NCBI GenBank assembly: GCA_963664225.1
Contig: OY760937.1
Span: 1,248,001-1,312,000, forward strand
DNA length: 64,000 bases
Direction: 5' to 3'
Origin: Verrucomicrobiia bacterium
Lineage (GTDB): Bacteria > Verrucomicrobiota > Verrucomicrobiia > Limisphaerales > UBA1319
Positions 9,176-42,327 of the stretch are shown one piece after another. Below the pieces are notes generated by a model. The model saw only the letters and a list, made by a program, of their open reading frames with translations. It was not told the origin of the DNA and searched no databases. The position numbers were made by a program, and so were the translations under genes. Each line of letters starts with the position of its first letter. Position 1 is the stretch's first letter.

Positions 9176-9187
9176 TTTAGCGCGCAT

Positions 9188-13334: not shown

Positions 13335-13358
13335 CGGACACCAAAACGGACACCAAAA
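13335..13358 (+). repeat. tandem 12-bp direct repeat, probable integrase arm-type sites
   Basis: CGGACACCAAAA x2 between the tRNA 3' end and the integrase. Confidence 0.6.
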
Positions 13359-13457
13359 ATGGTAGTCCATTACTAGGGCGTCAGTGCTCGCATATGCGCT
13401 GCCACTACTCCCTAACGCTGGAGAATCGAAGTCAATTACGCTCGATTTCACGAACGT

Positions 13458-20070: not shown

Positions 20071-20293
20071 TCGGCAGTGAAATCGAGTCCTGTTTTGTCG
20101 AAGCCCGTTACGCTGGTTTCGGTCAGGATCAGGAACCCACCGACCTCACCATTGCCCAAGTCCTGACCGATTTTGTCCCGCTGTCCAAAATGATGGCGGA
20201 GCAGATTGGGGGGTGAGGAACTGGGCGAAAGGGAGGGCCAGGTATGCGACTTCATCGGTTTCAGAATCGAAGCTGAGGAGGTTGGTGGTGTAG
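20040..20293 (+). pseudogene. C-terminal remnant of a Ycf46-like AAA ATPase with a frameshift
   Basis: ARATEGLIGSEIESCFVEA...FVPLSKMMAEQIG, then after a frameshift in the G-run near 20210 RNWAKGRARYATS...*; no N-terminal part. Confidence 0.7.
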
Positions 20294-20397
20294 TTCGAAA
20301 GGGGAATGTGGCATCGGGCTGGATTCCTCTTTTTTTAGCTGTCTGCCTGTCCTGCGCAGAAAGTTCCACAAACTAATCGGTCAGGGAAACAGCGACT

Positions 20398-20895
20398 TCA
20401 GGTTTGCGGCGTTAAAGCTGAGGAAATGAATTGGTTGAACGCATCCACATCGCTCGCTGGGAGTTCAGCCAAGGAACCGGACAACTTCCCATCAGAGGGG
20501 TGCTGTAAAAAGTATCCACCAATCCCGGAAGCAGTGATATAAGCGGCATGCTGTGGGGTAATCGGCGTTGTTCGTTTGGTGTTTGGCCAATCTCCATGAT
20601 CGAGGAATGAACTGGATATTGCAATCGACCCGCTGACAAGCATTGATCCGAATGGGTGTTCATCGACCTCCGAACCATCAATGCGACGAAAATTATAGAG
20701 AATGACGGGGCTGTTCCCTGCACTTCCTGAGATGATGCGGGTGGCTGAATCAAACTTGGCTGCCAGACTTCCTGGGATAAACGAAGGGAAGTCGGCTGGG
20801 CCGACAACAAGGAACCCATCACCATCCACCAAGACGCTACCAAGCTCGACTGATTCAGTTGGGTCTAATCGGAATGGATGCACGAAGTTTGGCAT
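20398..20895 (-). CDS. hypothetical protein, last gene of the defence operon
   Basis: ORF 11 nt downstream of the nuclease gene; no recognised motif. Confidence 0.6.
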   Translation of the reverse strand: MPNFVHPFRLDPTESVELGSVLVDGDGFLVVGPADFPSFIPGSLAAKFDSATRIISGSAGNSPVILYNFRRIDGSEVDEHPFGSMLVSGSIAISSSFLDHGDWPNTKRTTPITPQHAAYITASGIGGYFLQHPSDGKLSGSLAELPASDVDAFNQFISSALTPQT

Positions 20896-20906
20896 GGCAA
20901 GGAATA

Positions 20907-22145
20907 TCAAAGCCCTCTTGGGCCAACAATCACAATAATCCGCATCCGTTCCGTCGTTTCGGACAGATCCTTCTCCAGTGCGGTGGGTTTGTCACAATAC
21001 CTTTCCGGGTCGTAAACGAAGCAAATCAGGGTGCGGCAGTGGGGATGCGATTTGTATCTTTCCTTGTCTTCGGCCAACTGGGAGGTGAGCTCGCGTTGGC
21101 CAAGGTTCTTGCGAGTCATCTTCACCTCGACAACTACCTCTTCAGGCATGAGCAGGAAGTCCATTCGCGCTGAACTTCCTCCGTGGCTGGGAGTGGTTTC
21201 CTCAGGCCGCACGTCTTCAAAATGGAGTTGCAGCAGTGCGTGCATGAGGTCCTGCACGTCATACTCATCCTTGATCTGGATTCCTTTGCGTTTGTCGTGC
21301 CGCTTCTGCAACTGTTTTGCGAACAAGGGAAACCGCCTGCAAATGGATTCTACCAGTGACGCTGCATCCTGCGTGCTTCTGGACAGAATCCAGGTATCGG
21401 CAATGGCGGAGCAGAGCCTTGATCGGATTGCCTGCCTCAGCGAGCAGCAGAGAACGGACGCCTCCGCCAAGTCATGAACGTTTAGCTCAGATTCCAAGCT
21501 ACTCAAAAGCAGAGCCTTGTCCACGGGTGCAAAGGCGTGGTCGGTGAAAGTCGCAAACGCCTTGGAAGCGCTTCCGACCCACCGTGCTAGGGCCAACTCC
21601 TGAGCCCGGAGGCCTGCCCATTGGGATGGTGTATTGACAGTTTTCTGGACGCCAAGGATGTCGCCAGCGAACTGATGCAACGTTGATTCCCAGAAGCTGA
21701 CGCCGCTTGATTTTGCCAACTCTGCCAAAGCACCGATCAGCCACTCCACCTGTTGATCTTCGTGGTGTTTGCAGCAGGACAATCCAAGTGCAAGGCCAAC
21801 CACTTCGAGCGGGCGATATGCAAACGACGAACGGTCCACAGGGAACAATTCGCGCTTCTGGAGCCGCTGCAAGGCTTTCAGCCACGCAGCCTCGTCTGGC
21901 AGAGCCGACCGCCACAGCCCAGCCGCCATCGCGCTACCTGCAGCGGCGAGAATTGGGGCTTCGTCAAGGCGCTTCGCGTCCAGTGAAATCTTGGCCTCTG
22001 TCAGAAATGAAGGCACTTCACCGATTTTCCTGTAAATGACACCCGCGAATGCCATCGCTGGCGAAAAAGACCCCACGTTACGCCGTTGGAACTCATCCAG
22101 GCGTGCCAACTGAGCCGCGAGGCTGTGGTGCAAGACGTCGCTCAT
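20907..22145 (-). CDS. Argonaute-associated nuclease with C-terminal DpnII/MboI-like PD-(D/E)XK domain
   Basis: DEYDVQDLMHALL...VRPEETTPSHGGSSARMDFLL...VVEVK motif; ATG at 22145 overlaps the pAgo stop (ATGA). Confidence 0.88.
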   Translation of the reverse strand: MSDVLHHSLAAQLARLDEFQRRNVGSFSPAMAFAGVIYRKIGEVPSFLTEAKISLDAKRLDEAPILAAAGSAMAAGLWRSALPDEAAWLKALQRLQKRELFPVDRSSFAYRPLEVVGLALGLSCCKHHEDQQVEWLIGALAELAKSSGVSFWESTLHQFAGDILGVQKTVNTPSQWAGLRAQELALARWVGSASKAFATFTDHAFAPVDKALLLSSLESELNVHDLAEASVLCCSLRQAIRSRLCSAIADTWILSRSTQDAASLVESICRRFPLFAKQLQKRHDKRKGIQIKDEYDVQDLMHALLQLHFEDVRPEETTPSHGGSSARMDFLLMPEEVVVEVKMTRKNLGQRELTSQLAEDKERYKSHPHCRTLICFVYDPERYCDKPTALEKDLSETTERMRIIVIVGPRGL

Positions 22146-24433
22146 AGGAACCATTTGCTTGCGCGCAACTTGATGTTCAGCATCGCTGGTGACCAATCAG
22201 GGACGGTTCGCATCCGACTCAACAGGCCGGCGATCAGCTCGGAATAGTAGATGGTGACGGGCAGCTTTGCCGGCAGAGTGGAACGCCACGACAGAGAGGT
22301 GAACTTCAACACCTGCTCAGCCAGCGAAGCCAGGTCACGATAACTGGATTCTGGATGAATACGCACCAGCAAGGGCACCGGCAGCGGTGAAACCGGGCGC
22401 TTGATCAATTCAGGTCCGTTGGTGCAGAGCAGCCGCGTGAAAGCTCCAAGCTGCGCGATGACACCACGCTGCGGCACGAAAACGGCCTTCCTCATTTCAC
22501 CGTGGTTCCTCATCGGTATGCCTGGCTGATCGCAATCAAACAGTCGGAACGGATGATCCTGCGTGACAGTCAGGAACGCGAACTCCACGTTCTGTTCATC
22601 TCCAACGGTTGCGACGCAGTCCTTCATGATGCTCGCAAGCTCCAGCTTCTTGAGCGGCTTAAAGGAATGCACGACCACGCGAACGGTGTCCCCCGGCTGC
22701 CAACCGTTTCGTTTCTTGATCTCTTTCAGGATCTCCACAGTCGAACGCTGAAGCACCTCCGGATAGTCGTCGTATCCACACTCCGATGACAGGTTCGAGA
22801 GCAGATAGTTTCCATCACCCCTGAAAACGGTGGTGATGCCGATGAAACGCTTGCGAGCCTCGAACCTGCTTTCTCGCATCTCGCAGGAACCGAGACCGAG
22901 CACCAACTCGTCCGCGATGGTCAGGTCGTGGTCCACTGTCCAAGGGATGCCGTTCAGCTTCGCGTAAAGGGCCACTGAGATGTTTTGCAGGTTATACTGG
23001 AGACTGGCTTCGGGCTGGCTGATGGTAAACACTCGAACATCCTGCACCGGGATTCCGGCCATCAGCAGCACTGCCTTGGAGTGAAGATATGGGTTTTGCG
23101 GGTCTGGAAGTCTGGCGTGGTCGTTCAAAATCGTCACGATGGCAGCATCGAACTGCGCGTCCCGACTCAGGAACTCGCTGATCGTTCTGCGGTATATTGC
23201 GGCTGGACTATCGTTTTGTCGGGGGAAGAGCGGTATGCGGCAGGGCACGAACTGGGGATTCACCAGGCAGAAAGATTTTGCAAAACCACCACCGTAGCGG
23301 CTATTCTGTAATCCTGTGATACCATCCCGGAAATACTTGAGGAAGCGCTCTGCCGGTCCTTGCACCGAATCCGGAAACACGAAGAGAATCCGCGGCGACT
23401 TCTTGGCCAAGGTGTCGCGGCTGAACGGGCCGAAACTCTCGAGACCAGGCCAGGCATATTTGTTCCTCTTGCTACGCGCTGAATCGAAGCAATAGTCTAC
23501 CACTGGAGCCTGAACAACAGTCTTGTAGTTGCCCACGTTCTGCATTCGGATGCGTTCACCGATTGAACACTGGATATCCGGACACAAAGTCAGCGGAGAT
23601 GCCTTTCGCAAATACTCACCCATGCGCCCAACCCGTTCGTCGAGGGCATCGCCAACCAGCACCAGTCCCTCTTGCTCTTGGCGTTCCTTTTCGAAGTCAT
23701 CGTATGCCTTGCCAAGCAACTGCTTGAGGCAATGTGCGAACGAAGCCCTCGACCCCTCCAGAAGAACATCGTCCACGAAAATGTCAGTCACTTTGTCGTG
23801 GGCTTCAGAGAGCGTGATTCTCTGCCCGATCACTTCCTTGATGCGGCCAACCAGCCTGCGGCCTTTTGGATCTGGAACCCGTCGCACGACATAAAGCCCT
23901 GCCACATCAATCCCAGACGTCTTGAGTTCGTCCAAGGGTGCGAGAATCTGCCAGTTCGTGGCGATGTCCACGAAAAGTCCGACCCGCAGCTCTCCCTCGC
24001 GCAATTCAATCATCCTGGCGTCCAACTCGAAAGTAAGGGAAATCTTGAACTTGCTCACAACGGGCGGGAGCCGTGTCAGCCGGGTTAAGATCGCTGCCAC
24101 AATTTCTTCTTTCTGACCACGAAACTTGAATGGCTTGCGCCGAAACGCTTCATACTGTGGGAACTTCTCCGGTAAAACGTCCGTCAACCGTCGCGCCAAC
24201 AGGGAGAGATGATCGGCGACTTTCAGCGTCTGTGCATGCCCGAATGGTTTTGACGGCGTTGCGCATTTCGGCAGTCCGTATGCAACCCCATCGTGCCAGT
24301 GGATAAACCATTCATCACCCAGTGCCTCCCGAGTAGGTTCCAACTGCTGGTTGTCGGGCATCGGGCTGACATAGCCGGTGAAGTCCTCCTTCGTGAAGGA
24401 CACTGAAAAGCCGTTGAAGAACAGGTTGCTCAT
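22142..24433 (-). CDS. long-B prokaryotic Argonaute (RsAgo-like, catalytically inactive PIWI)
   Basis: MID YLHSK..VQ..NISVALYAKLNGIPW; PIWI LVLGLG (no catalytic Asp), IGITTVFRGDGNY, KFTSLSWRSTLP..PVTIYYSELIA, terminal SKWFL; recalled close resemblance to Rhodobacter sphaeroides Ago. Confidence 0.95.
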   Translation of the reverse strand: MSNLFFNGFSVSFTKEDFTGYVSPMPDNQQLEPTREALGDEWFIHWHDGVAYGLPKCATPSKPFGHAQTLKVADHLSLLARRLTDVLPEKFPQYEAFRRKPFKFRGQKEEIVAAILTRLTRLPPVVSKFKISLTFELDARMIELREGELRVGLFVDIATNWQILAPLDELKTSGIDVAGLYVVRRVPDPKGRRLVGRIKEVIGQRITLSEAHDKVTDIFVDDVLLEGSRASFAHCLKQLLGKAYDDFEKERQEQEGLVLVGDALDERVGRMGEYLRKASPLTLCPDIQCSIGERIRMQNVGNYKTVVQAPVVDYCFDSARSKRNKYAWPGLESFGPFSRDTLAKKSPRILFVFPDSVQGPAERFLKYFRDGITGLQNSRYGGGFAKSFCLVNPQFVPCRIPLFPRQNDSPAAIYRRTISEFLSRDAQFDAAIVTILNDHARLPDPQNPYLHSKAVLLMAGIPVQDVRVFTISQPEASLQYNLQNISVALYAKLNGIPWTVDHDLTIADELVLGLGSCEMRESRFEARKRFIGITTVFRGDGNYLLSNLSSECGYDDYPEVLQRSTVEILKEIKKRNGWQPGDTVRVVVHSFKPLKKLELASIMKDCVATVGDEQNVEFAFLTVTQDHPFRLFDCDQPGIPMRNHGEMRKAVFVPQRGVIAQLGAFTRLLCTNGPELIKRPVSPLPVPLLVRIHPESSYRDLASLAEQVLKFTSLSWRSTLPAKLPVTIYYSELIAGLLSRMRTVPDWSPAMLNIKLRASKWFL

Positions 24434-24439
24434 TGATGA

Positions 24440-25408
24440 TTAGGCAGCAGGTGGACTTGTGACAACATTACCGTATATTTCCGGCAGCGCTTTCATGACC
24501 TCTGGAAAGACAGCCCCGGGAGGAAGCAAGAGCATGGCCGGTGCAATCGCGTTTAGCAAATCACGTCTACCAACATTTCTAAACAGCAGGGCGGCAGACA
24601 TGAGCGCCGGAGCCAGTCCCCGCATCATTTCGGCCAGTTGTTCATTCGTCTTACAAGTTCCAACCCACCATGCAAGGCCCCCGTTGTAGCCATCCGGGTT
24701 CGTGTCACCACAAATGAAACCGCCGCGAATTGTGAGGTTGAACCACCAGAAGAACGGCGTCTGCATTTGCGCATAACGAGCGCTTTGCGCCCCGAGGTCC
24801 AGAACTTTGCGCAACGACACCTTTTTCTTGTTCAGCGCTTTCTCATCATCGAGCTCATCAACAGATATCGTGGTAATCGGAAAGCCGAGTTCCACCCGAA
24901 ATCGCTTTCTGCCACCTGCAGCGGGGTCAACTCCCAGATCTTTTGGCTGATCTACGCCGCAAACTGAGCCCGACTTTCTTAGGTTGGGCACAAGTTCAAT
25001 AATCCCGCATTCAGCCTTGTGTTGGTGGTAAACGAACCAAGCCGGAAGTGTTGAATAGAGCGACAGCGTCCTTTTGTTCTTGTTCACGACAGCCAACATA
25101 AGCGGAAGGCCTAAACTAAAGAACCAGTCAAAATGAGCTGTGTAGGTCGAGTCGCCTTTTTGAGAGTCTGGCGGGGCAAGAACAATCTTGGGCTTTGACG
25201 CGGATTTCACAGACACCAGGTAGTGAGAAGTGAAGCTGAGCAGGTCCGCCTTGGAGTTATAATCCGACAGGTTGCAGACCAGATCAAAACCGATGTCCTC
25301 CTACCGCGGGACTTGCGTAACCAATCCGAGACCAGAAAGGATATATACCGCGAGGTATTCGCTTCGGTCTCCTTGCCTAAAATCAGGGTGTCGTGTGCCA
25401 GTTGACAT
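24440..25408 (-). pseudogene. PD-(D/E)XK (DUF4365-like) nuclease gene interrupted by an in-frame TAG
   Basis: From ATG 25408: MSTGTRHPDFRQGDRSEYLAVYILSGLGLVTQVPR*EDIGFDLVC...LVSVKS; TAG at 25301-25303 is in frame with the 258-aa ORF. Confidence 0.75.
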
Positions 25409-25417
25409 AAAAGCTGT

Positions 25418-27379
25418 TCAAATATTGTCCCTCAGAAACCGCCGCTCCTTCTCTGTTGAAGAAAACGGCGGATGCACCAGCCAGGGCATGCCTTTCAGGT
25501 GCTCTGGCGGCGGTTCAGTGGTGGTGATAATGTATTGGATTGGCGCTTCTGCCTCGCTGAACTCCTCGTCCTTGGGAATGTCGAAGATGCGCCGGTAAAT
25601 GGAGGCGGTCAGGTCAGCTTCACGGGGGCTGTCGTGAATCAGGAAGCCAGGGTGCTGTTCGATTTGGCGGGCTGATGAGAGCAAGGCTGCGAGGTCGAAA
25701 ATCAGAACCTTTAGCGTCGTCAATGCCGTGCTTGTCAGGTCGCTATAATCGAGTTCCAGTTTCACATCGTCGGCAAGGAAACGCACCGTGCCGCGATTCT
25801 CCGATTGCAGGACTCGTCCAGCGAGCAGGCTGAACACCTCTGAGAAATCCGACTGGCGGGCCGTCGCCTTTTGCCGCAGACTTTCCTGGTAATCCGTTGA
25901 CTTCCGCTGCTCGCCTTGAAGTCGCTCGGATTTCTTTTGCTCGGCCTCCAGTTCTTCGGTGAGGGTCAAAAGGTCCGAAGTGACTTCATGCTTGCGCCGC
26001 GCAAGGGAGAGGTCCCCCTCTAACGCTTCGATTCTTTCCTGATGCTTCTGGCGGGCAGTTGCAATTTGCTTTTCGAGCCGTTGTTTCTCTTTCACACTTT
26101 CGGCCTGTTCACGTTTTAATCGACCGACTTGGTCCTGAAGGCTAGACACCCGCGCCTGTAATACGCCCTGGGTGGACTGAAGTTCAGCCAGGACATGCTC
26201 GGCAAAGCGATTGGGATGCAGCGCCTCCGCGAGCTTGCATCCGTGCGCGATTGCCAGTTCAAGCGGGGCGCTGCACTGGTCAGCCCGCAATGGCATCTGA
26301 GCTAGCTGTTGACGATATTCCTCCTGAGTGATGCGTTTTTCATGGAAATCCAAGGTAAGCGTCGCCTTCTTTCCATCATTCTCTGCGTCCTCCAGTTTCT
26401 TAGCCAAATCTGCCAGTTGTGTGATTTTCTTGTCTCTTTGAACTGGCAGCAAATCGCCCGCGCCATCCCGTTGCCGCATTTCGCCAATCAAGTTAAGAAT
26501 CCGGGTTTCCTCCTTTTCAAGCCCGGCCTTCTCCACCGTCAACGTGCTCTCCATGATCGTGGCATCTGGCGCATTCATCACGCTGCGGTATTTCTTCTCC
26601 GCCCGCCCACGTACGTAAGTTAGCTTGGGAATTAGCGTGTCACAGTCTCCCTTGTCTCGAAGAAGTCGCATATGTTCCCGCCGCGCCTCAAGCTCTCCAG
26701 GTTGGGTTAATCCCAGCACCGTGCGAACCAGAAGCGTGCGGTCTGAGCTGTGAATGTCGCCTAGAGACGACGCGCCCCCGTAACTGGAACGCCAGTCGAG
26801 CACATGGTCGTAGCGCGCTTCCTGGTCACGGCTCAACCACGCGAGCAGGTGCGCCCAATCCACTTGCTTGCCAGAACCCGGATAGACTTCAATTGGCAAC
26901 GGTTGGATGAACGCCTTCTGCAACGCGCGCACGAAATCGGCGTACGCCTGCCGATCGACACTCGCGTCAAACAACTTCTCGAATGTCACTCCGCGTGCGC
27001 TCCAATGCGGGCCGCCCGTGATGCCGACAAATCGGCCCACCAGCCACGCCTCGCCATCGAGATGCACCTCACCGGCCACCCACGCGTTGGGGAATTTGTT
27101 CCGAAACGCATCGCGAAACGTGTCGTTCCCGAAGTTGGAATCTCCCAGCAAGTAGCGGAGGAATCGGCAGAACGTCGTTTTCCCAGCCGCATGTCCGCCC
27201 GCACCTTGTTCGGATGGTTCAGCCCAGAGGATATTCAAGCCCTGTCGCAGAGTGATCCGCCGTTGGAGCGCATCCGGCTTCCACTCCCGATACACTGCGA
27301 GTTCCTTCACCCACAGCCGCGGTTCGCGGCGTGTTGCAGTTGGCAGCGTGGAGGCAAAAGGAAGGTCTGGTGTTTTCAT
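25418..27379 (-). CDS. SMC/Rad50-like coiled-coil ABC ATPase (ABC-three-component/Lamassu LmuB-like)
   Basis: GLNILWA..GHAAGKTT Walker A, long coiled coil, PGFLIHDSPREADL Walker B, QYIITTT. Confidence 0.85.
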   Translation of the reverse strand: MKTPDLPFASTLPTATRREPRLWVKELAVYREWKPDALQRRITLRQGLNILWAEPSEQGAGGHAAGKTTFCRFLRYLLGDSNFGNDTFRDAFRNKFPNAWVAGEVHLDGEAWLVGRFVGITGGPHWSARGVTFEKLFDASVDRQAYADFVRALQKAFIQPLPIEVYPGSGKQVDWAHLLAWLSRDQEARYDHVLDWRSSYGGASSLGDIHSSDRTLLVRTVLGLTQPGELEARREHMRLLRDKGDCDTLIPKLTYVRGRAEKKYRSVMNAPDATIMESTLTVEKAGLEKEETRILNLIGEMRQRDGAGDLLPVQRDKKITQLADLAKKLEDAENDGKKATLTLDFHEKRITQEEYRQQLAQMPLRADQCSAPLELAIAHGCKLAEALHPNRFAEHVLAELQSTQGVLQARVSSLQDQVGRLKREQAESVKEKQRLEKQIATARQKHQERIEALEGDLSLARRKHEVTSDLLTLTEELEAEQKKSERLQGEQRKSTDYQESLRQKATARQSDFSEVFSLLAGRVLQSENRGTVRFLADDVKLELDYSDLTSTALTTLKVLIFDLAALLSSARQIEQHPGFLIHDSPREADLTASIYRRIFDIPKDEEFSEAEAPIQYIITTTEPPPEHLKGMPWLVHPPFSSTEKERRFLRDNI

Positions 27380-27385
27380 AGGGGT

Positions 27386-32341: not shown

Positions 32342-32617
32342 GGTCTAAGTGGTGAATGCCGAGTGGCGAATGCCGGGCGGCAAGTTGTCAGGCATGTGAG
32401 TCATTTCTGAGGCGTTGTCCTGCCGACGGTTCATACGGCCTTTCCTTTGCAGCCAGCCTCTTTTGTCATGAGATCGTTTAAGTCTCTAAGGAATGTTTTT
32501 AGGTTTCTTTGCTGTGCATTAAGGGCCAATTTGCGAAACGATGTCTCGTTCAGCCAGTCGCGCCAGATGGCATTGATGAAGATTCTCGGGCTATTCATGG
32601 TCGTTGGCACGATGCTC

Positions 32618-35464
32618 TCATCCTTGCAGGATGGGTAACAGTAAATACGCGCCGAGTATGTCCACCGGCAGGACGGGTTCGATTTGGACCTTGGCTTTGG
32701 CGCGCGAGGCTTCGCGCACACGGTCATGAGCCTTCAGTTGGAGAACGGCGCGGTGGGAGGCGATCTGGCCAAGGGCGATTTGGAAGTCAGGCAAACCACC
32801 GAGTAACAACGGGAGTTGCTGATCTACGAGCGAAGAATTGATGTTTGCATCCGGTCGCGCGCTAAGCAGGGCTTCGGCTTGTTCACCCTCGATCCATTGA
32901 GGTGACTGGGCGCTGCCATGGAACGCGAGTGGGACGATTTCCTCGCAAAGCAGGGTGAGATCTTCCGAGACGCGCGGCTTGAGATGGTAACGAAAGCGGA
33001 CGACCACGAGCGTGGTGCGGACATCGACGCGCCGGGTGCGGACAATGCCGCAACGAGCGGCCACGGGGGCAGCGTCACGGGCGGCGGGATCGAGCGCCTG
33101 ATCCAGCACCCAGCCGGCCAGTCCCTCGACCGCCGGGCTGGTGCGACCGAGGTAGATTTCACCGTCCTGCAAGGGGAGATCAAAGCGCCCAGCGAATTTC
33201 GTTTCCTGCTGGAGCGCCTGGCGTAAAGCGCGCGGCGTCTCCTTCTCGTGGACGCAAACCTCAATGGCTCTCATGGGCGCAGGTTTGATGGGCACATTAG
33301 CGATGGCCATGGCTTGACGAAAAAACAGTTCGACATCGGCAGGACTGCCGAGCGCCTGACGGACGGCGTTCATCTCGGCGGCGACCAGTTCGGGCTTGAG
33401 CGCATTCTGGGCGTAGCGGGAACGGCTTGCCTTTTCCTTGTCGCGGGCGTTTTCCCACTCGCGGTGGAGGGCTTCCTTGCGAGTTTGGGTGGCGGACTTG
33501 AAATCAAAGGTGAGCTGGTCGTTTGAGCTGCCAGCCATTTCGCGGAATAGGGCACCTTCGAACAGGGCTTCGGCAACTTCCTCGCTCGAACCGGGCACGG
33601 CGACGGAAACACCGAGGTCACTCTTGATGCTCTTGTGCTTACGGAGGAGCACGTCGAGGATGACCCCGTCAATGGGGTTGTCGCGGCCGTAGAAGGTGAG
33701 AACACGAACCTCGGGGGTTTTCTGGCCAAAACGGTCCACGCGGCCTTCGCGTTGCTCGTGACGGGTGGGATTCCAACACAGGTCGTAGTGAACGACGGCG
33801 TCGAACTCGCGTTGAAGGTTGATACCCTCGGAGAGGCAGTCAGTGCAGACAAGGACATGCTGGGGGGAGGAGGCGAGGACGGCGATGCGCGCTTCTCGCT
33901 CACTGGGCGGCAGCGTTCCCGTGACGGAGTCAACAGCGATGTTCTTGGCAAGCGCTTCCCGCAAGTGGCGGGCAACGTAGTCGGCGGTATCAATGAAACG
34001 GCAAAAGACGATGGGCTGAGAGCCAGCAGCGAGAAGGGCTTTGATGTGCCTGGTGGCTTCGATCAGTTTCTGGTCAGACTTGCCGGCCATCTCCTCTGCA
34101 CGACGCGCGAAGGCGAGCAGTTGACGCCGATTGGGTTCATCCTCGGTGCCTTCGGGGCTGGCCCCGGGTGTAAAGTCAGGAACTACCGGTTTATCATCTT
34201 CGGATTCATCCATGACCCGCTCGCGCCCGATTTGATTGACCTCTTCGACGGTCTGTCCTTCCTCCACGTCAGCACGATTGCGCAACGTGGCGACTGCGGC
34301 GGCAGGACTGGAAGAGAAGCAACGCAGCAAGGCGAGCGCAGACCAATATCTGACGCGCTGAGCACGTCGCTGCTGATCACCGGTGGTGACGAACTCGCGA
34401 GCGAATTGAATGACGTCGAGGAAAAGCTTTCGATATTCGGGGCTGAATGCGTAGGTTTCTTCTTTGTCCAATCGTGTTGGGAACGATGTGTCAGTGTCGA
34501 GGAACCGGCGGATGTCGGCACGGCGACGCTGGACCAGGTGAAGCGCGAGTTTCTTGCGAAGGCTTTCACGGGTGTCGAGTTCGATCTCGGAGGGAAGGTT
34601 CTCGAACTCGCTATCGAGCAGGCCCAGGAGAGAGCGGAAGGCCTGTTCGTTCCCACTATGCGGCGTGGCGGTGACGAGAACGACATGGCGCTCCGGCGAC
34701 TGGGTAATCTGGCGGATGAGTTCGTAGCGGAGTTGGCGACCAGCTCCCCTGCCGCCTGCCGGTGTGCAACCGTGGGCTTCGTCGACGATGACGAATTCCG
34801 GGCACTTGAGCGCGAAGTCGTCACGACGACCCTTGCCTTTGATGAAATCGGTGGAGACGATGACAAACGGATGGCGGTCGAACACGGAAACACCGATGGG
34901 TAGATCGCGCTCGAGACGCTGGATCGTGCTACTGAGTATCAACTCAGCTTCAAGGTGGAACTTGGAGGCAAGTTCCTTCTGCCATTGCTCGGCGAGGTGC
35001 GGCGGACAGAGCACGGCGAGAGTTTTAATTTCGCCCCGGTCGAGGAGCTCACGGGCGATCAGGCAAGCTTCGACCGTCTTGCCGATGCCGACGTCGTCAG
35101 CAATCAACAGGCGGATGGGGTCGAGGCGCAAGGCCATGATCAGTGGGACGAGCTGATAGGGGCGAGGGTCCACCGCGATGCGGCCAAAGCTGCGGAACGG
35201 ACCAGCGGCGGCCCGGGTGGAGATGCGGGCGGCATCACGCAACAAGGTGCCAGCTTGATAGTCGCCCAGGTCATTGCGCGTTGGGAAAGAGAAGGTCGCG
35301 CTTTGGACCGGCTCTACCGCCGGGAGCAGGCCGGTGACCTCTTCATCCAACCCGCCGACCGGGCGAAGCATCAATAAATCATCGGTCGAATCGGGCAGGA
35401 CAATCCATTCGCGTCCGCGCGCATGCACCAGAGTTCCTGGATTAGAAAGGGTTGCGACGCTCAT
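32618..35464 (-). CDS. SNF2-family helicase (DrmD/ArmA-like)
   Basis: PRPYQL, LLIADDVGIGKT, VDEAH, TATPH, SEGINLQ, QREGRVDRFGQ. Confidence 0.93.
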   Translation of the reverse strand: MSVATLSNPGTLVHARGREWIVLPDSTDDLLMLRPVGGLDEEVTGLLPAVEPVQSATFSFPTRNDLGDYQAGTLLRDAARISTRAAAGPFRSFGRIAVDPRPYQLVPLIMALRLDPIRLLIADDVGIGKTVEACLIARELLDRGEIKTLAVLCPPHLAEQWQKELASKFHLEAELILSSTIQRLERDLPIGVSVFDRHPFVIVSTDFIKGKGRRDDFALKCPEFVIVDEAHGCTPAGGRGAGRQLRYELIRQITQSPERHVVLVTATPHSGNEQAFRSLLGLLDSEFENLPSEIELDTRESLRKKLALHLVQRRRADIRRFLDTDTSFPTRLDKEETYAFSPEYRKLFLDVIQFAREFVTTGDQQRRAQRVRYWSALALLRCFSSSPAAAVATLRNRADVEEGQTVEEVNQIGRERVMDESEDDKPVVPDFTPGASPEGTEDEPNRRQLLAFARRAEEMAGKSDQKLIEATRHIKALLAAGSQPIVFCRFIDTADYVARHLREALAKNIAVDSVTGTLPPSEREARIAVLASSPQHVLVCTDCLSEGINLQREFDAVVHYDLCWNPTRHEQREGRVDRFGQKTPEVRVLTFYGRDNPIDGVILDVLLRKHKSIKSDLGVSVAVPGSSEEVAEALFEGALFREMAGSSNDQLTFDFKSATQTRKEALHREWENARDKEKASRSRYAQNALKPELVAAEMNAVRQALGSPADVELFFRQAMAIANVPIKPAPMRAIEVCVHEKETPRALRQALQQETKFAGRFDLPLQDGEIYLGRTSPAVEGLAGWVLDQALDPAARDAAPVAARCGIVRTRRVDVRTTLVVVRFRYHLKPRVSEDLTLLCEEIVPLAFHGSAQSPQWIEGEQAEALLSARPDANINSSLVDQQLPLLLGGLPDFQIALGQIASHRAVLQLKAHDRVREASRAKAKVQIEPVLPVDILGAYLLLPILQG

Positions 35465-38400
35465 GTGGAAGGGGTGCCGAATACATCCGGATGACGCGGG
35501 AAAATTTCGTTCCAGTCGGCCTTGTGGTGAAACCGGATGACGAGATAGCCCGTCTCCATCAGCCGCTGTGTGATGGCCTCGTCCTGTCGAATCTGGTCTG
35601 CCCCGTCATGGGGTGGTCCGTCAATGTAGATCGCCGCATTGTGTTCACGGTAGTAGAAGTCAGGGCGCGTGGTGCAGGATTCGATCAGGAATTGCGCATC
35701 GCTGGGCGGGCGGAGGAGCAAGGAATCAATGCGATCGAGCCAGCGCTTTTCCAACTGGCTATCGCAGCGCTTATGCAGGGCGGCCAGCCGTTCGGCGCGC
35801 GACCCGGCGCCACCTGCGGGGCAACAGACTGATCTTGCAAGATCCGAAAGAAGGTCGCGGATGAGATACCGGTTGAGATCCTTGTGGTCCGGCTGATTAA
35901 AATAATCGAGAAGGCACTCATAGCATGCCTTGCCACAGGTCTTGGCCCCCTTATCTTCGAGAGTGTCCGCATCGAAGTGGAGTATCTCAAGCGCACGCCT
36001 TGCCAATAGAGGAATCAAAGTGGGGTCTTCGGCGATCTGCCGCAACACGCCAGCACCACCCTCGGACGCTTCATAGAACAGGATTTCCTGCCGGTCTTTG
36101 GCTGATGGCATCGGCTCGCAGGAGAGTTCGCGCGGCTCAAGTTGGAAATGTTTGAGGATGGCCTGTTTGAAGGCAGATTGCAGGCTAGCCATTTCCGGGC
36201 CTGACCGGGCTGGCTCAATGCGCATGACGAGCGCGTTTTTGGTGTCTTTCACGTATGGCACCACGCGCTGAAGCCGACCTTGGGCGGTGGCATCGTCCTC
36301 GTCCTCATCATCGGCCTGGTTGCGTGACCAGTAGCCGCGTTCCAGGTCGAGATTGAAACCGGGCGGCTGGGTGCCCCGTTGATTGGCCCAACCCAGATTG
36401 ATGCGGTAAAGATCCGTGGCGTCCCCATAACTGAGACGCATCGCGAGGGTGTCACCGCAGTAAACCTCAGCGTCCTTGCGGTCCAGTTTGCCGCCGATTT
36501 CCGGAAAGCGGTAAGAGGTAACCAGTTTGTAACCGAAACGCTGACGCTCCTCTTCATCACAGGTGATGCGCTGGGCCATCTTGAGGCTGACGTTTTGCAG
36601 GTGAACGAGGTTGTCAATGCGGGCGGGACCATCGAGCGCGGCACCACAGCGATCACATACTTCGACCAAGTTTTTCCCCTGCTCCAAGTGAGCATAGCCG
36701 CATTTCGGACAACGCTTCATGGTGGCGGTCACCAAATCATGCGTCGCCTCGATATCGTCTGAGCCGAAGTCGAGGTTCACCTTGTAAACGCGGTAACGGG
36801 CACCTTCGTGATAGATGAGGGCGCGAGGGCCGAACTCGGAAATGGCCAGAAAACGAGGGCGGGAGACGAATTCATCGCGCCCCTTCCTTTTGCGGCGGCC
36901 TGGAACGTAAGCGGAAAGCGGTAAACGCGGAAAATTGTATCCAGGAAGGAAGCCTTCGGCGGCGAAATAGCGATAAGAATAGAAGTCACCTTCGTAGATG
37001 CTTTCAGCCTCTGTGAGCAGGCGAATCTGGCTCTCGGCCTGGGCGCGGAGACGGCGCGACTGGTTGCGCTCGGCCTCCGGTCTGGCATGGTCGCCGATGA
37101 TCTTGTGGTGCAGTTCGCGCTGACGTAACGCGGAGCGATAGAGCCCCCGCCAGCGGTCGCAAGCCGAATCGAAGGCTCGCTCGATCTGGTCAAGCACCTC
37201 CCGGGTCCAGTTTTCATGGAACCAGGCGGCTGTGGACAGGTCATCGCGAATGCTGGCAATGAGCGAGTTGGCTTTAGCCAAGGCGGATGCTCGGTGGATT
37301 GGATTCCGAAGTTCTTTCCCAAGGGCGTCCTTGACGGGCAACGGGATCTTGCCATCGGCAGCGGCCAGGTCGAGGACGGTGGCTAAGGTCTTGCCAAGGT
37401 CCGGTGTGGCGACTTCCATCCAAATGGCATGGACATGTGAACGGACCAGGTCGCGGTTGCGAATGTCGATGCGCGGGGGGGCAACGAAGCCGGCGACCAT
37501 CTGGTGCGGTTCGCGGAAGTAATATTGGTCGTGTGGGCTGCGTCCGGCACAATAGGTATAGACGAGTGCTGGCTGGCCGCCACGTCCGGCCCTGCCGCTG
37601 CGCTGGGCGTAATTGGCGGGGGTAGGCGGGACATTGCGGAGATTGACGAGGTTTAACTGGGCGATGTCCACGCCCAGTTCCATGGTCGGAGAACAAAAAA
37701 GCAGAGGCAGATCGCCAGTGCGGAAACGGTCTTCGCGGTCTTCGCGGTCTTCGGCTGTGACCTGGGCGGTATGCTCGCGCGCTTCCAAAACACACTTTAG
37801 GTCGACGAAGCTGCGATAGCACTCAACGAAGTATCGGTTGACCTCAGGCGGGATTTCACCCACCTCGAGCAGGCGAGTGCGGTCAAGCGGGCGAATCTCC
37901 CCTTGTGCCGGCAACCAGCGTAAGGCGTCGGCGTTGATCTGGTAGCCGGGGACCTCACCACTGCGGACTTGCTCAACGATTCCGTAGCGCTTAAGGGCGA
38001 GGAACAAAAACCGGATGGCTTGTTCCACTTCCGGCCGACCGAAATTTTGACCTTGCGGGACGTGTTGCCGCAATAAGCGTTTCACGTAACGACCATAGCT
38101 TCCATAGGAGGAGACGAAGAATCCGGTTCGATCCATCGGCTGCTTGGGACGCGGGTAAGCCACGACGGATTTCACCAGTTCGCGCGCATCCTCCAGATAC
38201 CAGACCGTATCCTCCAACAGCCTGGGCATGGTTTGTTCGACCAGGTCGAGCTGTTTTTGAGGATCGAGCACATCCACCTTTATGGCCAGCGATCGGCGAA
38301 GAACGTCAAGGAGGGTGCGAAGGAGTTCTTCGCGTAACTCGGGCTGGCAAGATTGCAACGGCGGAGGGGTCTCGATAAACTGTTCCACGTCACGGTCCAC

Positions 38401-40716
38401 CTGGATTTTGAAGCCGGTGCTCCAAAGTTGCACCTCGTCAAGCAGGCTATCAGTTCCCTTCAATCCTTCGTAGTCGAAGACGAGCAAACCGCAATCTTCC
38501 AGATTTGGCGCGGTCACCCGCCAACCGCGCTGGAGATCACGATAAAGGTAATAATCGATGACACGGCGAAGGGCGTCATTGGTGGCGTTCTTTGCTGGGC
38601 CGCGCACTTCCGGGTCGGCGGCGTATTCGTCGAACTGAAGCTGCATGGCCTCGAAGACCGAGCGCGAAAGTTCGCCGTGGTTGATTCCGGGGCCGCGTTT
38701 TTCCTGGGTCGCTTTATGAAGCGCCGACCGGAGCAGGGCCACTTGGGCGAAATCATTGAAGTGACCGGCCTGAAGCGAAGCATCCTGCCGGTTGTCCGTA
38801 AAACTGAGGAGTTTACGGGCCTCGGGGTTGAGATCGCGGTCGCGCTGCAATTCGATAAGCGAGCGGACCGCCAGGATAGTGGTTGCCGTGCTGCGATTAT
38901 CCACCCCGAGGGTGGCCAGCTTGGGGCGCTCTGAACGCTGGTTCCTGGTGTATGCCACACCGCATGATGGATGAAGGCAGAAGAGGAAGTTTCCATGGAT
39001 GAGCGCTGCCGGCATACCCTGGCCTTCGGAGACGAGTCGGCCCGTGGCGTCAACGAAGACGGGTTCTGGCATATCGGAGCGTGAGGAGGGAGCAATCCGT
39101 TCCACACCTTGAGGTGTGGTTTCCTTCATGAAGGCCGGGAGCCGCTCCAACAGTTCCGCTCCCTCGGTTCGTGGCCAGGGATGCGATGTGGAGACATAAA
39201 GATAAGCATCGCCATTGCCATCGTCACCTTCCTCACGGCGGTCCTCCCGCGGCAGCAGCGCTTTGCCCTGCTCAGTGGACACCGTTTTCACACGATGGTA
39301 TGCGGTGCCGCACTGACGACAAAAGACCAGGGGAAAGAGCAACTTGTCAGGCTCGCCAGGCTTGGAGCCTTTCTTGGACATTTCCAAGTGGCGCTGTGGC
39401 TCGGGTTCGAGAGTGGTCCAAACGGTGTCACCACGCGTGAAAAACTGATGCAGCCGGAACGCAAAGATGGGAAAGCGGCTCGATGCGCTTCGCCGGAGTT
39501 CGGAGCCCTTCAGCAGGTATTGGCGCAGCACCGCTTCGCAGCGTGGCGGTTCGGTAATGGTCAGGTGCGCAAGTTCTTCTGCGGCACTGTCAGAACCCTG
39601 CAAGCGCCGTGGTGCCTGCCGGATGAGACGGACAGTTCCTGCCTCGGCGCGGACACCAAAGGTTGTTTCGATCCAAGAGGCCAAAGGGTGAATTCGGAAG
39701 TGTTCGTAATCGTCGGGAGGCGGCGTTTCGGCCTGGATGGTGTCGCGCAAGGACTGAACCACTTTGGAGTCCTTGAAATCAACCTCCGGGGTAGCGCGTT
39801 CCAATGACTCACCAATCACCTGCGAAGCATCAAACGGGACACCCAAAAGCATCTTTGCAACATTGGCGACTTCGCGCTTCTGATCATCGGTAGAGCCACC
39901 ACTGGCCATTGTCGCCGAGGTGCCGACGCAGATAATGTCGTGGCCGCCGAAAGCTTGGCGGCAGCGGCGGATGAGTAGCGCTACGTCTGCACCCTGGCGC
40001 CCACGATAAGTGTGCAACTCATCGAAGACGAGAAAACGTAATCCCTGCGCGGCTCGGATTAGTTCGCGGTCCTCATGGCGCGTGAGGAGCAATTCCAGCA
40101 TCATGTAGTTCGTCAGCAAGATATCGGGCGGATTGCTGCAAATTAAGTCACGCTCTGGCCGTTTTTCCTGGCCGGTGTAGCGAGCGAAGCGAACGGGGGG
40201 CTTTCCTTCCGGGTATCCCTGTTTAAGGAACTTGCCAAGCTCCTCGTCCTGACTGTTAGCCAGGGCGTTCATGGGATATACGACGATACCTTGGATGCCT
40301 CGGCCTGAGCCACGCCGAAGAACATGATCCACAATCGGGACGATGTAAGTCAGACTTTTGCCGGAGCCGGTGCCGCTGGTTAGAACGTATGATTTGTTTT
40401 CCTTGGCTTTGCGAATGCCTTCAGTCTGGTGTGTGTGGAGAAGGAGTTGTTTGCCAGCCAGATCGGCCTGCGTTTTGTCGATGCGGAAGATTCTGGCACA
40501 TTCGGGGTGCAGGGTTCCGTCAGCGACGAGGTCGTCGATGGTGCCACCTGGCTGGAATGTTGGATTTAGCTGAAGGAGGGGTTCCGGCCAGAATGCGCCG
40601 GCATTGAGTTCGGAATCGACTTTTGAGAGAATGGACGCGTCGGCGATCTTTATGAAGCTCTTGGTATAGCTTGCGTAATCGTTAACCAGACGTTGCCGTA
40701 AATCGAAGACATTCAT
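35461..40716 (-). CDS. YprA-family DEAD/DEAH helicase fused to DUF1998 and a C-terminal Vsr/DUF559-like nuclease domain
   Basis: TSGTGSGKS, YPMNALANSQ, FDELH, TMELGVDI, QRSGRAGR; DUF1998 FYEASEGGAG and CGKACYECL; RPDFYY..YIDGPPH; start at ATG 40716 (MNVFDLRQRL). Confidence 0.92.
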   Translation of the reverse strand: MNVFDLRQRLVNDYASYTKSFIKIADASILSKVDSELNAGAFWPEPLLQLNPTFQPGGTIDDLVADGTLHPECARIFRIDKTQADLAGKQLLLHTHQTEGIRKAKENKSYVLTSGTGSGKSLTYIVPIVDHVLRRGSGRGIQGIVVYPMNALANSQDEELGKFLKQGYPEGKPPVRFARYTGQEKRPERDLICSNPPDILLTNYMMLELLLTRHEDRELIRAAQGLRFLVFDELHTYRGRQGADVALLIRRCRQAFGGHDIICVGTSATMASGGSTDDQKREVANVAKMLLGVPFDASQVIGESLERATPEVDFKDSKVVQSLRDTIQAETPPPDDYEHFRIHPLASWIETTFGVRAEAGTVRLIRQAPRRLQGSDSAAEELAHLTITEPPRCEAVLRQYLLKGSELRRSASSRFPIFAFRLHQFFTRGDTVWTTLEPEPQRHLEMSKKGSKPGEPDKLLFPLVFCRQCGTAYHRVKTVSTEQGKALLPREDRREEGDDGNGDAYLYVSTSHPWPRTEGAELLERLPAFMKETTPQGVERIAPSSRSDMPEPVFVDATGRLVSEGQGMPAALIHGNFLFCLHPSCGVAYTRNQRSERPKLATLGVDNRSTATTILAVRSLIELQRDRDLNPEARKLLSFTDNRQDASLQAGHFNDFAQVALLRSALHKATQEKRGPGINHGELSRSVFEAMQLQFDEYAADPEVRGPAKNATNDALRRVIDYYLYRDLQRGWRVTAPNLEDCGLLVFDYEGLKGTDSLLDEVQLWSTGFKIQVDRDVEQFIETPPPLQSCQPELREELLRTLLDVLRRSLAIKVDVLDPQKQLDLVEQTMPRLLEDTVWYLEDARELVKSVVAYPRPKQPMDRTGFFVSSYGSYGRYVKRLLRQHVPQGQNFGRPEVEQAIRFLFLALKRYGIVEQVRSGEVPGYQINADALRWLPAQGEIRPLDRTRLLEVGEIPPEVNRYFVECYRSFVDLKCVLEAREHTAQVTAEDREDREDRFRTGDLPLLFCSPTMELGVDIAQLNLVNLRNVPPTPANYAQRSGRAGRGGQPALVYTYCAGRSPHDQYYFREPHQMVAGFVAPPRIDIRNRDLVRSHVHAIWMEVATPDLGKTLATVLDLAAADGKIPLPVKDALGKELRNPIHRASALAKANSLIASIRDDLSTAAWFHENWTREVLDQIERAFDSACDRWRGLYRSALRQRELHHKIIGDHARPEAERNQSRRLRAQAESQIRLLTEAESIYEGDFYSYRYFAAEGFLPGYNFPRLPLSAYVPGRRKRKGRDEFVSRPRFLAISEFGPRALIYHEGARYRVYKVNLDFGSDDIEATHDLVTATMKRCPKCGYAHLEQGKNLVEVCDRCGAALDGPARIDNLVHLQNVSLKMAQRITCDEEERQRFGYKLVTSYRFPEIGGKLDRKDAEVYCGDTLAMRLSYGDATDLYRINLGWANQRGTQPPGFNLDLERGYWSRNQADDEDEDDATAQGRLQRVVPYVKDTKNALVMRIEPARSGPEMASLQSAFKQAILKHFQLEPRELSCEPMPSAKDRQEILFYEASEGGAGVLRQIAEDPTLIPLLARRALEILHFDADTLEDKGAKTCGKACYECLLDYFNQPDHKDLNRYLIRDLLSDLARSVCCPAGGAGSRAERLAALHKRCDSQLEKRWLDRIDSLLLRPPSDAQFLIESCTTRPDFYYREHNAAIYIDGPPHDGADQIRQDEAITQRLMETGYLVIRFHHKADWNEIFPRHPDVFGTPST

Positions 40717-40723
40717 GAGCACT

Positions 40724-40987
40724 TTATTGGATGCGGCCAGTCTGATCTGGAGGAAAGGCGGTTTTGGGAAGCAGTTCAGTGATGCCGTAAAGTGGGTTTG
40801 GCCGAGGCGACTTTCTCGCGGCATAAACGACCTGGACCCACGGTTCAATCTCGAACGCCAGGAAATTCCACAGGCTTCCAAGTTTGTGGACAAGAGTTCT
40901 ATTGCGAAAGATACGGCTATAAGTCGTGTCTGGATCGACGTCCAAGTGCGTCGCAATCTCTCCAAGTGACAGCCAATATGCTTGCAT
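40724..40987 (-). CDS. excisionase-type HTH (HTH_17) regulator heading the defence operon, divergent
   Basis: WLSLGEIATHLDVDPDTTY..HKLGSLWNFLAFEIEPWV matches the MerR-like HTH_17 pattern; ends 7 nt before the helicase ATG. Confidence 0.7.
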   Translation of the reverse strand: MQAYWLSLGEIATHLDVDPDTTYSRIFRNRTLVHKLGSLWNFLAFEIEPWVQVVYAARKSPRPNPLYGITELLPKTAFPPDQTGRIQ

Positions 40988-41859: not shown

Positions 41860-42327
41860 TTAAGGTTTCCGCGGGCGCATTTCGTCATGTTCTTGGAAGG
41901 AGTAAAACCCCGCGTTACCAATGACCAGGTGATCTAATACGGGAATCCCCAGGAGTTCGCCCGCTTCCTGAAGTCGGTGCGTCACCGCGACATCCTCCGC
42001 GCTGGGGATGATTCCCCCGGCATTCTGACCCGAAGTATGGTTGTGAGCGACGATGATCGATGTGGCACCGGCCGCCAGAGCGGCTTGAAAAACTTCCTTG
42101 GCGCCGACGGGGCAACTGGAAGCCGTTCCCGTCGCGGCCACATAGTAGCCCATGACTTGGTTGCGGTTATCGAGAAACAGGGTTAAAAAATGCTCGCGGA
42201 CGTTATCCGGTAAAACCCGCCGCATGAATTCGGCCGCTTTCGCGGGTGAACCGACCGCGTCAAAAGTGACTCCCCGGCGTGGTCCTCGATATTTCAGCGA
42301 CACCTCACGAACAAAAACAACAGCCAT
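41860..42327 (-). CDS. short RadC-like JAB-domain protein
   Basis: REHFLTLFLD, IIVAHNHTSG...SAED, VLDHLVIG. Confidence 0.88.
   Translation of the reverse strand: MAVVFVREVSLKYRGPRRGVTFDAVGSPAKAAEFMRRVLPDNVREHFLTLFLDNRNQVMGYYVAATGTASSCPVGAKEVFQAALAAGATSIIVAHNHTSGQNAGGIIPSAEDVAVTHRLQEAGELLGIPVLDHLVIGNAGFYSFQEHDEMRPRKP

Follow-up and report, generated by a model that had tools for sequence, protein, structure and literature searches.

We analysed a 64,000-nt stretch of a Verrucomicrobiia genome (contig OY760937.1 of assembly GCA_963664225.1, forward-strand positions 1,248,001 to 1,312,000; hereafter the window) that carries an array of putative defence genes, made up of an operon of the ARMADA Type I kind, a coiled-coil ATPase gene with a broken nuclease gene behind it, and an Argonaute-nuclease (BPAN) pair. 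Nine co-directional open reading frames (ORFs), all on the minus strand, are present in the ORF list and translations at the coordinates that an earlier note on this DNA had given (Table 1), and the eight gaps it had listed were recomputed exactly. They measure 7 nt between the helix-turn-helix (HTH) and YprA-like helicase genes, -4 nt between the helicase and SNF2 genes, 276 nt between the SNF2 and methylase genes, 6 nt between the methylase and ATPase genes, 9 nt between the ATPase and DUF4365-like genes, 6 nt between the latter and the prokaryotic Argonaute (pAgo) gene, -4 nt between the pAgo gene and its partner nuclease gene (ATG at 22145), and 11 nt between that gene and a 165-aa ORF (ATG at 20895). 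The earlier note counted nine genes. Eight of the ORFs are indeed intact, but the sixth gene is broken by an in-frame TAG that had gone unnoticed.

Table 1 Features of the defence array in window coordinates, listed 5' to 3' on the coding strand
Feature	Position	Strand	Remarks
HTH protein, 87 aa	40724..40987	-	weak family matches; 7 nt upstream of helicase gene
YprA-like helicase, 1751 aa	35461..40716	-	DEAD/Helicase_C, MZB (DUF1998) zinc domain, putative C-terminal DUF559/Vsr-like domain
BrxHII/DrmD-like SNF2 helicase, 948 aa	32618..35464	-	4-nt overlap with helicase gene
SNF2/methylase spacer, 276 nt	32342..32617	-	contains 55-aa ORF 32598..32431
PglX/DrmMI-like N6-adenine DNA methyltransferase, 1651 aa	27386..32341	-	Eco57I/N6_Mtase; NPPW
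DUF2326/LmuB-like coiled-coil ABC-type ATPase, 653 aa	25418..27379	-	Walker A, coiled coil, HDSPREAD block
Broken DUF4365-like PD-(D/E)xK gene, 322 codons	24440..25408	-	premature TAG 25303..25301 (codon 36)
RsAgo-type long-B pAgo, 763 aa	22142..24433	-	NCBIfam equivalog; predicted catalytically inactive by tetrad
bAgaN-type nuclease, 412 aa	20907..22145	-	helical N-domain and DpnII-MboI-like PD-(D/E)xK; 4-nt overlap with pAgo gene
Conserved 165-aa protein	20398..20895	-	11 nt after nuclease gene; no family match

The upstream part of the array is an ARMADA-type core, as the earlier note had proposed, with the Type I order of YprA homolog, BrxHII-like SNF2 helicase and PglX-like methylase described in Bell et al. 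2025 (PMC12458937; preprint bioRxiv 10.1101/2025.09.15.676423). The helicase matches the Pfam models DEAD (3e-23), Helicase_C (4e-12) and MZB (4e-10), its translation contains GSGKS and DELH motifs, and it is 35-37% identical over its full length to helicases classed as ARMADA Type I in Table S1 of Bell et al. Its C-terminal 150 aa match DUF559 at E = 6e-4 (20.1 bits, slightly short of the 20.6 cut-off), which resembles the Vsr-type nuclease that is fused to ARMADA Type I helicases (PMC12458937). The SNF2 protein matches the PADLOC DpdE model PDLC02853 over its whole length (E = 7e-243) and the DrmD models of PADLOC (8e-84) and NCBIfam (6e-90, below cut-off), and is 38-44% identical to the SNF2 proteins of other loci that combine ARMADA with the ATPase described below. 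The methylase matches Pfam Eco57I (1e-17) and N6_Mtase as well as the PADLOC DrmMI (5e-56) and type IIG (2e-46) models, and its translation carries a VGSGHF motif for binding S-adenosylmethionine and a catalytic GNPPW motif; the NPPW motif is required in ArmB (PMC12458937). Gene order, the DUF1998/MZB domain of the helicase, the NPPW motif of the methylase and carriage on a mobile element are shared with ARMADA Type I, as is probably the C-terminal Vsr/DUF559-type domain of the helicase. Two features set the locus apart: it adds a fourth gene, for the ATPase, and a fifth slot, for a nuclease gene, after the methylase, and its SNF2 and methylase genes are separated by the 276-nt spacer.

The top PADLOC model for the helicase is DruE3 (1e-110), and the DruE, DrmD and DrmMI labels arise because the 2023 PADLOC library contains no ARMADA models. 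DISARM class 1 has in common with the array a YprA-family helicase, a DrmD-like SNF2 protein and a DrmMI-like adenine methylase; however, the helicase and DUF1998/MZB domains are fused here in one 1751-aa protein, whereas DISARM has separate DrmA and DrmB, and Pfam and PADLOC searches found no PLD domain in the array of the kind carried by the DISARM nuclease DrmC. Druantia type III is brought to mind by DruE3, but the locus lacks the DruH partner. The small protein encoded upstream of the helicase matches HTH_17 (E = 0.018) and an NCBIfam MAD1-like HTH model (E = 1.3e-7; 31.8 bits, under the cut-off of 80) and is probably an operon regulator or an element-borne AlpA-like protein. No homolog of it was found by BLAST upstream of YprA in 7 plasmid loci that combine ARMADA with the ATPase.

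The fifth gene encodes a predicted ATPase with a Walker A half of the head, a coiled coil of ~280 aa and a C-terminal half of the head carrying the HDSPREAD block. It matches Pfam DUF2326 (1.7e-5, below cut-off) and the PADLOC LmuB models (E = 1e-13 to 0.004, and up to 1e-21 in homologs), and these weak matches agree with its earlier description as SMC- or LmuB-like. The family has 83 homologs; in those that were aligned, the Walker A and Walker B-like motifs and the residues G66, K67, C381, D583, E587 and D589 are invariant. C381 is one of a pair of cysteines in the middle of the coiled coil (~26275..26237, minus strand) and is invariant in both alignments made, while its partner C369 is invariant in one and at least 90% conserved in the other; their spacing and position possibly recall a Rad50-type zinc hook. 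In a profile search of residues 245-520 against the PDB, coiled coils alone were matched, Smc included.

Homologs of this ATPase recur behind ARMADA I cores. Enough upstream sequence was available for 22 loci anchored on the ATPase (1 from genome_contigs, 8 from plasmid records, 2 from viral contigs and 11 from the phylum), and the ARMADA I core lies directly upstream in 15 of them, in several phyla (genome_contigs, 1/1; plasmid records, 7/8; viral contigs, 1/2; phylum, 6/11). The sole match in the species-genome collection, 80% identical, comes from a Verrucomicrobiia metagenome-assembled genome (L002) in which YprA, SNF2, a YhcG nuclease, methylase and ATPase genes succeed one another and are followed by housekeeping genes on the opposite strand. 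The order YprA-SNF2-methylase-ATPase is found on seven plasmids (from Paraburkholderia, Caballeronia, two Mesorhizobium, Agrobacterium and two Rhizobium) and on one viral contig (L091), and the helicases of three of the ATPase-bearing plasmid loci are entered as 'ARMADA Type I helicase' in Table S1 of Bell et al.; on the second viral contig (L088) the ATPase follows a Type III restriction-modification operon. Within the phylum the ATPase is present in 11 of 401 genomes, this genome (G000) included, and the other ten hold 11 loci. In six of these the ARMADA I core immediately precedes the ATPase, in three (L127, L130 and L131) SNF2 and large genes are arranged as in L088, and in two (L122 and L124) the neighbours are others. 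The ATPase gene often overlaps the methylase stop codon. In a tree of 26 ATPases the ARMADA-linked ones are found in both halves, with other contexts nested among them, and the link between ATPase and ARMADA is therefore old. As judged from its neighbourhoods and its tree, the ATPase belongs with the ARMADA core, as a recurrent and anciently linked fourth gene in a subset of ARMADA I operons.

ARMADA Type I was named in 2025, and the experiments on ARMADA concern Type II (PMC12458937). The main text of Bell et al., figures excepted, does not mention the ATPase beside ARMADA I (no SMC, ABC ATPase, Lamassu or DUF2326); the word 'ATPase' stands there solely in a reference title (PMC12458937). In the supplements DUF2326, Rad50 and Argonaute do not occur, and SMC and ABC appear solely within locus tags, accessions and strain names among the rows listed. 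Literature searches for DUF2326, and for ARMADA or YprA together with SMC or ATPase, found no description of an ATPase-bearing ARMADA subtype. The ATPase-extended ARMADA I with an exchangeable nuclease looks to be the undescribed part of the array, while the ARMADA I core and the BPAN pair are of known kinds.

What follows the ATPase differs from locus to locus: a DUF4365-like gene, an HNH gene (alone or after one to two genes), a Schlafen AlbA_2 gene, unknown genes, or none, with no nuclease gene after the ATPase in L002 and L092. In the window, this position is held by the DUF4365-like gene. Its family comprises 64 homologs of ~310 aa, and in an alignment of 14 of them E37, D38, D42 and K68 are invariant. 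Of 20 members, 5 match DUF4365 (best E = 0.0011), and the ESM Atlas also points to DUF4365. Searched against PDB sequences, the family profile gave no match up to E = 10. A metagenome scan with the family alignment yielded 80 loci anchored on the nuclease, in eight of which (L009-L013, L039, L071 and L086) the ATPase lies directly upstream; in L009 a YprA tail, SNF2, methylase, ATPase and nuclease stand in a row. Two close relatives of the nuclease (L008 and L014) have no ATPase, and distant members of the family occur in assorted restriction, defence and mobile-element settings.

Lamassu systems combine an SMC-like ATPase, LmuB, with a variable effector, LmuA, and have LmuC depending on the type. 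The locus is similar in that a coiled-coil ABC/SMC-like ATPase matching LmuB models adjoins a nuclease-type effector gene that differs by locus. In contrast to Lamassu, the effector gene comes after that of the ATPase and is missing from some loci, the matches to LmuB models are weak, and the ATPase gene is nearly always the last or next-to-last of a methylase-containing operon. PADLOC matched LmuA or LmuC to none of the neighbours of the ATPase in the window and the viral-contig loci.

The copy of the nuclease gene in this genome carries a TAG at a site that is Gln in all 14 aligned homologs, within the invariant RQEDxGxD motif. TAG is the stop codon of 2 of the window's 31 genes. Recoding of TAG was ruled out, as no tRNA with a CUA anticodon is present among the genome's 50 tRNAs, and a restart at the GTG at 25216 would exclude the conserved E37, D38 and D42. 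A whole-genome search found the gene in a single copy with the TAG inside, and positions 20001-40000 of the window showed 0 differences in the contigs of two public runs, which may be the assembly's own source. We regard the sixth gene as broken, because the TAG stands in frame at an invariant Gln and the predicted tRNA set includes no suppressor. The ATPase-nuclease arm is probably disabled in this genome, because the nonsense codon truncates the nuclease before its catalytic residues.

The seventh and eighth genes encode a pAgo and its partner nuclease. The pAgo scores 864.7 bits (cut-off 700) against the NCBIfam equivalog NF052569 (Rhodobacter Argonaute) and matches PADLOC pAgo_II at E = 2e-209. 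Its residues 4-763 align with PDB 5awh/6d8a, which we take to be RsAgo, at E = 4e-213, and the match to EcAgo has an E value of 5e-68. The tetrad positions G515, D555, S590 and E732 align to EcAgo G492, E532, Q568 and D700, which are named in Liu et al. 2026 (PMC13535254). With the first and third catalytic Asp lost, the DEDX tetrad is incomplete and the pAgo is predicted to be catalytically inactive. The nuclease matches Pfam DpnII-MboI (5.5e-52) and PADLOC Aga_Helical-REase (2e-69), and its weak match to EcbAgaN (PDB 23wq; E = 5.5e-4) aligns the D...EVK motif; a D-EVK motif is described for bAgaN in Liu et al. 2026 (PMC13535254). The view of the earlier note, that this is an inactive long-B pAgo with a partner nuclease, thus holds: the protein is an RsAgo-type equivalog with the tetrad G-D-S-E, and the nuclease gene overlaps it downstream.

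BPAN operons are simple, with two to three genes and the pAgo gene upstream (Song 2023, PMC10620215), and a pair of genes is enough to give defence (Liu et al. 2026, PMC13535254). In EcBPAN, RNA guides are used for DNA recognition, and pAgo and bAgaN assemble into an active non-specific DNase (PMC13535254). The pair in the window is like these in its full-length pAgo, with substitutions at the same two tetrad positions as EcAgo (first Asp to Gly, third Asp replaced), in the downstream nuclease gene overlapping that of pAgo, and in the helical N-domain and D...EVK PD-(D/E)xK C-domain of the nuclease. It differs in that it is embedded in a nine-ORF array and is not a simple operon of two to three genes, in having no upstream intergenic region of its own, since it starts 6 nt after the broken nuclease gene, and in being followed by a conserved 165-aa gene; in addition, its nuclease is only distantly related to EcbAgaN. 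From its domains, motifs and gene order, the pair is a self-contained BPAN system of the ordinary sort. A SPARDA-like pairing of the pAgo with the DUF4365-like gene was also considered, SPARDA consisting of a short pAgo and a DREN(DUF4365)-APAZ protein (Liu et al. 2026, PMC13535254). It was ruled out: the DUF4365-like family lies beside a pAgo in 0 of the 80 nuclease-anchored loci, and the pAgo at this locus is long (763 aa), not short.

The 165-aa protein encoded after the pair belongs to a rare family with 9 homologs of ~165 aa (54-85% identity) and has no match in Pfam, PADLOC or NCBIfam model searches. Its gene is absent after the nuclease in the pairs of genome G168 and of a Methylococcus plasmid, and the protein is not a regular BPAN component. 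Only one other genome among the 401, G159, has a homolog, which follows a 329-aa protein with a weak HNH_2 match (L108, 8662-10184) and has no pAgo nearby; in both genomes the gene sits just after a nuclease gene. Neither the pAgo nor the 165-aa protein had matches in viral contigs.

The earlier note suggested that the tight coupling of core, ATPase and Argonaute pair reflects one cooperating system, and proposed a survey of neighbourhoods for co-occurrence of pAgo. The loci sampled give no indication of such a link. The pAgo or its partner nuclease is found in 0 of 80 nuclease-anchored loci, iterated profiles included, and in none of the 22 ATPase-anchored loci, among them 0 of 8 from plasmids and 0 of 11 from the phylum; conversely, ARMADA or the ATPase is found in 0 of 5 pAgo loci examined. 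In the phylum, pAgo occurs in 4 of 401 genomes and the ATPase in 11, and they overlap only in this genome. The closest pAgo found, in G168, is 46.5% identical and its nuclease 34.7% identical, both at 99% coverage; there the two genes form a unit of their own, flanked by a coupling-protein gene on one side and an HTH/relaxase pair on the other, within a different conjugative element. The pAgo-nuclease pair on the Methylococcus plasmid also stands alone. At the depth sampled, the pair is thus beside this core only here, the first of three conditions that the earlier note had named as together speaking against its own proposal. The genes of the nine-gene 'super-operon' do lie together as described, but the evidence at present makes this a unique juxtaposition and not a system, and functional coupling of the nine genes is unsupported.

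Several observations bear on how the 3' end of the operon came about. L002 and the window share 30-40% identity in their core proteins but 80% in the ATPase, and the DNA similarity of the two stops exactly at the ATPase stop codon. A nuclease 61-63% identical to that of the window stands beside an ATPase that is either 87% (L010) or 32% (L009) identical, and the GC skew of the coding strand flips sign at the methylase/ATPase junction. These discordant identities, the end of DNA homology and the change in skew lead us to conclude that the 3' end of the operon was built from exchanged cassettes. The junction of the SNF2 and methylase genes is a second variable insertion slot of operons that combine ARMADA I with the ATPase. 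In relatives it holds a YhcG/DUF1016 nuclease gene (L002, 4087-5241; L123, 5507-7119) or ORFs of 171-194 aa (L125, 6798-7313; L126, 6600-7172; L132, 6927-7511). The 55-aa ORF in the window's spacer has no family match in Pfam/NCBIfam-type profile searches. That the spacer is a remnant of the YhcG gene of L002 was ruled out, no similarity being present (blastx E = 3.5).

Addition of further modules behind an ARMADA I operon was also observed in Nocardioides sp. JS614 (plasmid pNOCA01, L102, 13001-28982), where the ARMADA I methylase gene overlaps the gene of a McrB-like AAA ATPase, followed by McrC. Here too restriction modules have been joined to the 3' end of an ARMADA I operon, and immediately upstream of that operon stands a DISARM drmA/drmB locus.

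The array is surrounded by genes of a conjugative element. A tRNA-Leu(taa) at 13199-13286 is followed by a tyrosine integrase (feature span 13199-14564), and an exact 22-nt repeat of the tRNA-Leu 3' end lies ~135.7 kb rightward, at window coordinate 148929 and hence outside the window; within the window no repeat of this 3' end of at least 14 nt was found. The backbone genes encode ArdC, two RadC-like JAB proteins (41860-42327 and 57727-58407), a TrwB-type coupling protein, a TrwC relaxase, RepA and ParA, and IS66 and other mobile genes are carried as well. These features point to an island of ~136 kb (or tandem elements), integrated at the tRNA-Leu gene, in which the defence array and the conjugation genes both lie. 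The putative island also includes the start of an ATP synthase operon, at 59235.

Based on these findings, we consider it fairly likely, with appreciable room for doubt, that the array consists of defence modules stacked at the 3' end of an ARMADA I operon and carried as cargo by a tRNA-Leu-integrated conjugative island. By analogy with ARMADA Type II, the methylase of the first module would mark host DNA, and the two motors and the Vsr-like nuclease would attack unmarked invader DNA without killing the cell; the Type II system protects without growth arrest and depends on every one of its genes and on the NPPW motif (Bell et al. 2025, PMC12458937). The ATPase of the second module may, by analogy with Lamassu LmuB, detect DNA ends or abnormal DNA structures in the manner of SMC/Rad50 proteins and control the exchangeable nuclease next to it. 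In the third module, if it behaves as its E. coli homologs do, the inactive RsAgo-type pAgo would bind RNA guides, recognise invader DNA, and recruit and activate the bAgaN-type nuclease, leading to non-specific DNA degradation and abortive-type defence. Given that the junctions before and after the pAgo gene measure 6 nt and -4 nt, the whole array is likely to be read through from an upstream promoter. The BPAN pair would work by itself, and the outcome would be layered immunity through juxtaposition, not a single nine-protein machine.

It should be noted that several points weigh against this account. Seven of the 22 ATPase loci have no ARMADA core, and the ATPase may be an autonomous module. 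The SMC-like fold of the ATPase and the PD-(D/E)xK fold of the broken gene are assigned from weak profile hits and motifs, and the mechanism given for ARMADA Type I is extrapolated from experiments on Type II. The survey of pAgo loci covered five, with one close relative (46.5%), and left out four further plasmid hits and genome G297. In addition, two long-B pAgo genes lie in the same direction as modification-type genes and right behind them: on a Fibrella plasmid (L103, 5307-13317) the pair comes directly after a methylase gene, a small gene and a DEAD-box helicase gene, and in G313 (L007, 8519-15526) the gene ahead of a pAgo with 28% identity encodes a type IIG-like methylase of 1218 aa. 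BPAN-like pairs may thus tend to settle behind restriction-modification operons. Finally, the pAgo pair is probably expressed from upstream, since the 6-nt gap before the pAgo gene and the 4-nt overlap after its end leave no room for a normal promoter, and such expression would fit functional integration as well as mere stacking.

A more specific proposal, which we put forward tentatively, is that a subset of ARMADA I is a hybrid of the methylation-based core and a Lamassu-like arm, in which the Rad50/SMC-like ATPase with its Cys pair is tied to the methylase operon and governs the exchangeable nuclease slot, and that in this genome the nuclease died and the Argonaute-nuclease pair occupies its slot on the same transcript. 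That the BPAN pair has also taken over the function of the lost effector is a further step, and an improbable one.

The ATPase and the nuclease behind it could alternatively form an autonomous Lamassu-like two-gene system that preferentially lands at the 3' ends of operons of the restriction-modification type and is no working part of ARMADA. We think this unlikely. In its favour are the LmuB matches (1e-13 here, stronger in homologs), the variety of effector-like genes behind the ATPase, the separate history and opposite GC-skew sign of the cassette, and the occurrence of the ATPase after Type III restriction-modification genes (L088), in similar large-gene settings (L127, L130 and L131) and after other genes (L095, L122 and L124). 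However, in L002 and L092 no nuclease follows the ATPase, and an autonomous system would need an effector besides its sensor. Moreover, the start of the ATPase gene overlaps or abuts the stop codon of the upstream methylase or restriction-endonuclease gene in nearly all loci, linkage to ARMADA runs throughout the whole ATPase tree, and no LmuC-like gene was found, with a gene order that differs from that of Lamassu.

We give little credence to the idea that the array is decaying cargo, part or all of which is no longer under selection, such that the arrangement has no functional meaning. The TAG inside an otherwise invariant motif, the 276-nt spacer at a place where relatives have genes or overlaps, and the IS66 and other mobile genes on the island speak for decay; but this TAG is the single lesion found, and the other eight ORFs, of up to 1751 codons, are uninterrupted and keep their catalytic motifs. 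The identity of the stretch in the two public runs, possibly not independent of the assembly, also counts against decay.

The arrangement itself speaks for the reading that all nine genes act as one system, with the Argonaute branch supplied or set off by the activity of the helicase/nuclease or the ATPase. The nine co-directional ORFs have gaps of at most 11 nt save one, and scans of the array found no convincing promoter or terminator inside, the counts being no higher than the shuffled expectation; a weak site resembling a promoter (24465..24436), which stops 3 nt short of the pAgo start, was given no weight. Immediately ahead of the pAgo pair the resident nuclease gene is broken, and the pair could have taken over the effector slot. 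In addition, ARMADA II acts in synergy with a neighbouring Druantia III in E. coli (Bell et al. 2025, PMC12458937). Nevertheless, we regard such integration as very improbable, as the combination was found in this genome only and in none of the 400 others, BPAN is a two-gene system with RNA guides (Song 2023, PMC10620215; Liu et al. 2026, PMC13535254), the closest pair found stands alone, and no route is known from ARMADA products to the loading of RNA guides.

The locus shows how defence genes accumulate on conjugative elements, one cassette after another, at the same two junctions of a single operon. A conserved SMC-like ATPase with a swappable nuclease behind it would define a subtype of ARMADA I and give a handle on how infection is sensed and effectors are chosen in large helicase-methylase systems. 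The array would also be a natural construct with which to ask if protection is additive or synergistic when a methylation-based system that is non-abortive is co-transcribed with an abortive, RNA-guided Argonaute system.

Two further sets of genes lie on the plus strand of the window. Large proteins that combine SNF2 and methylase-like parts are typical cargo of conjugative elements, and one such gene (14776-20070), convergent to the array, encodes a 1764-aa protein whose C-terminal half matches SNF2, ResIII and helicase models and whose N-terminal part resembles an adenine methylase by eye. At 8147-10054, in the window's only low-GC stretch (GC 0.418 at 8001-10000), a ParA-like AAA_31 ATPase gene (342 aa) is followed by the gene of a SIR2_2-domain protein (288 aa), and these two are possibly another small defence pair.

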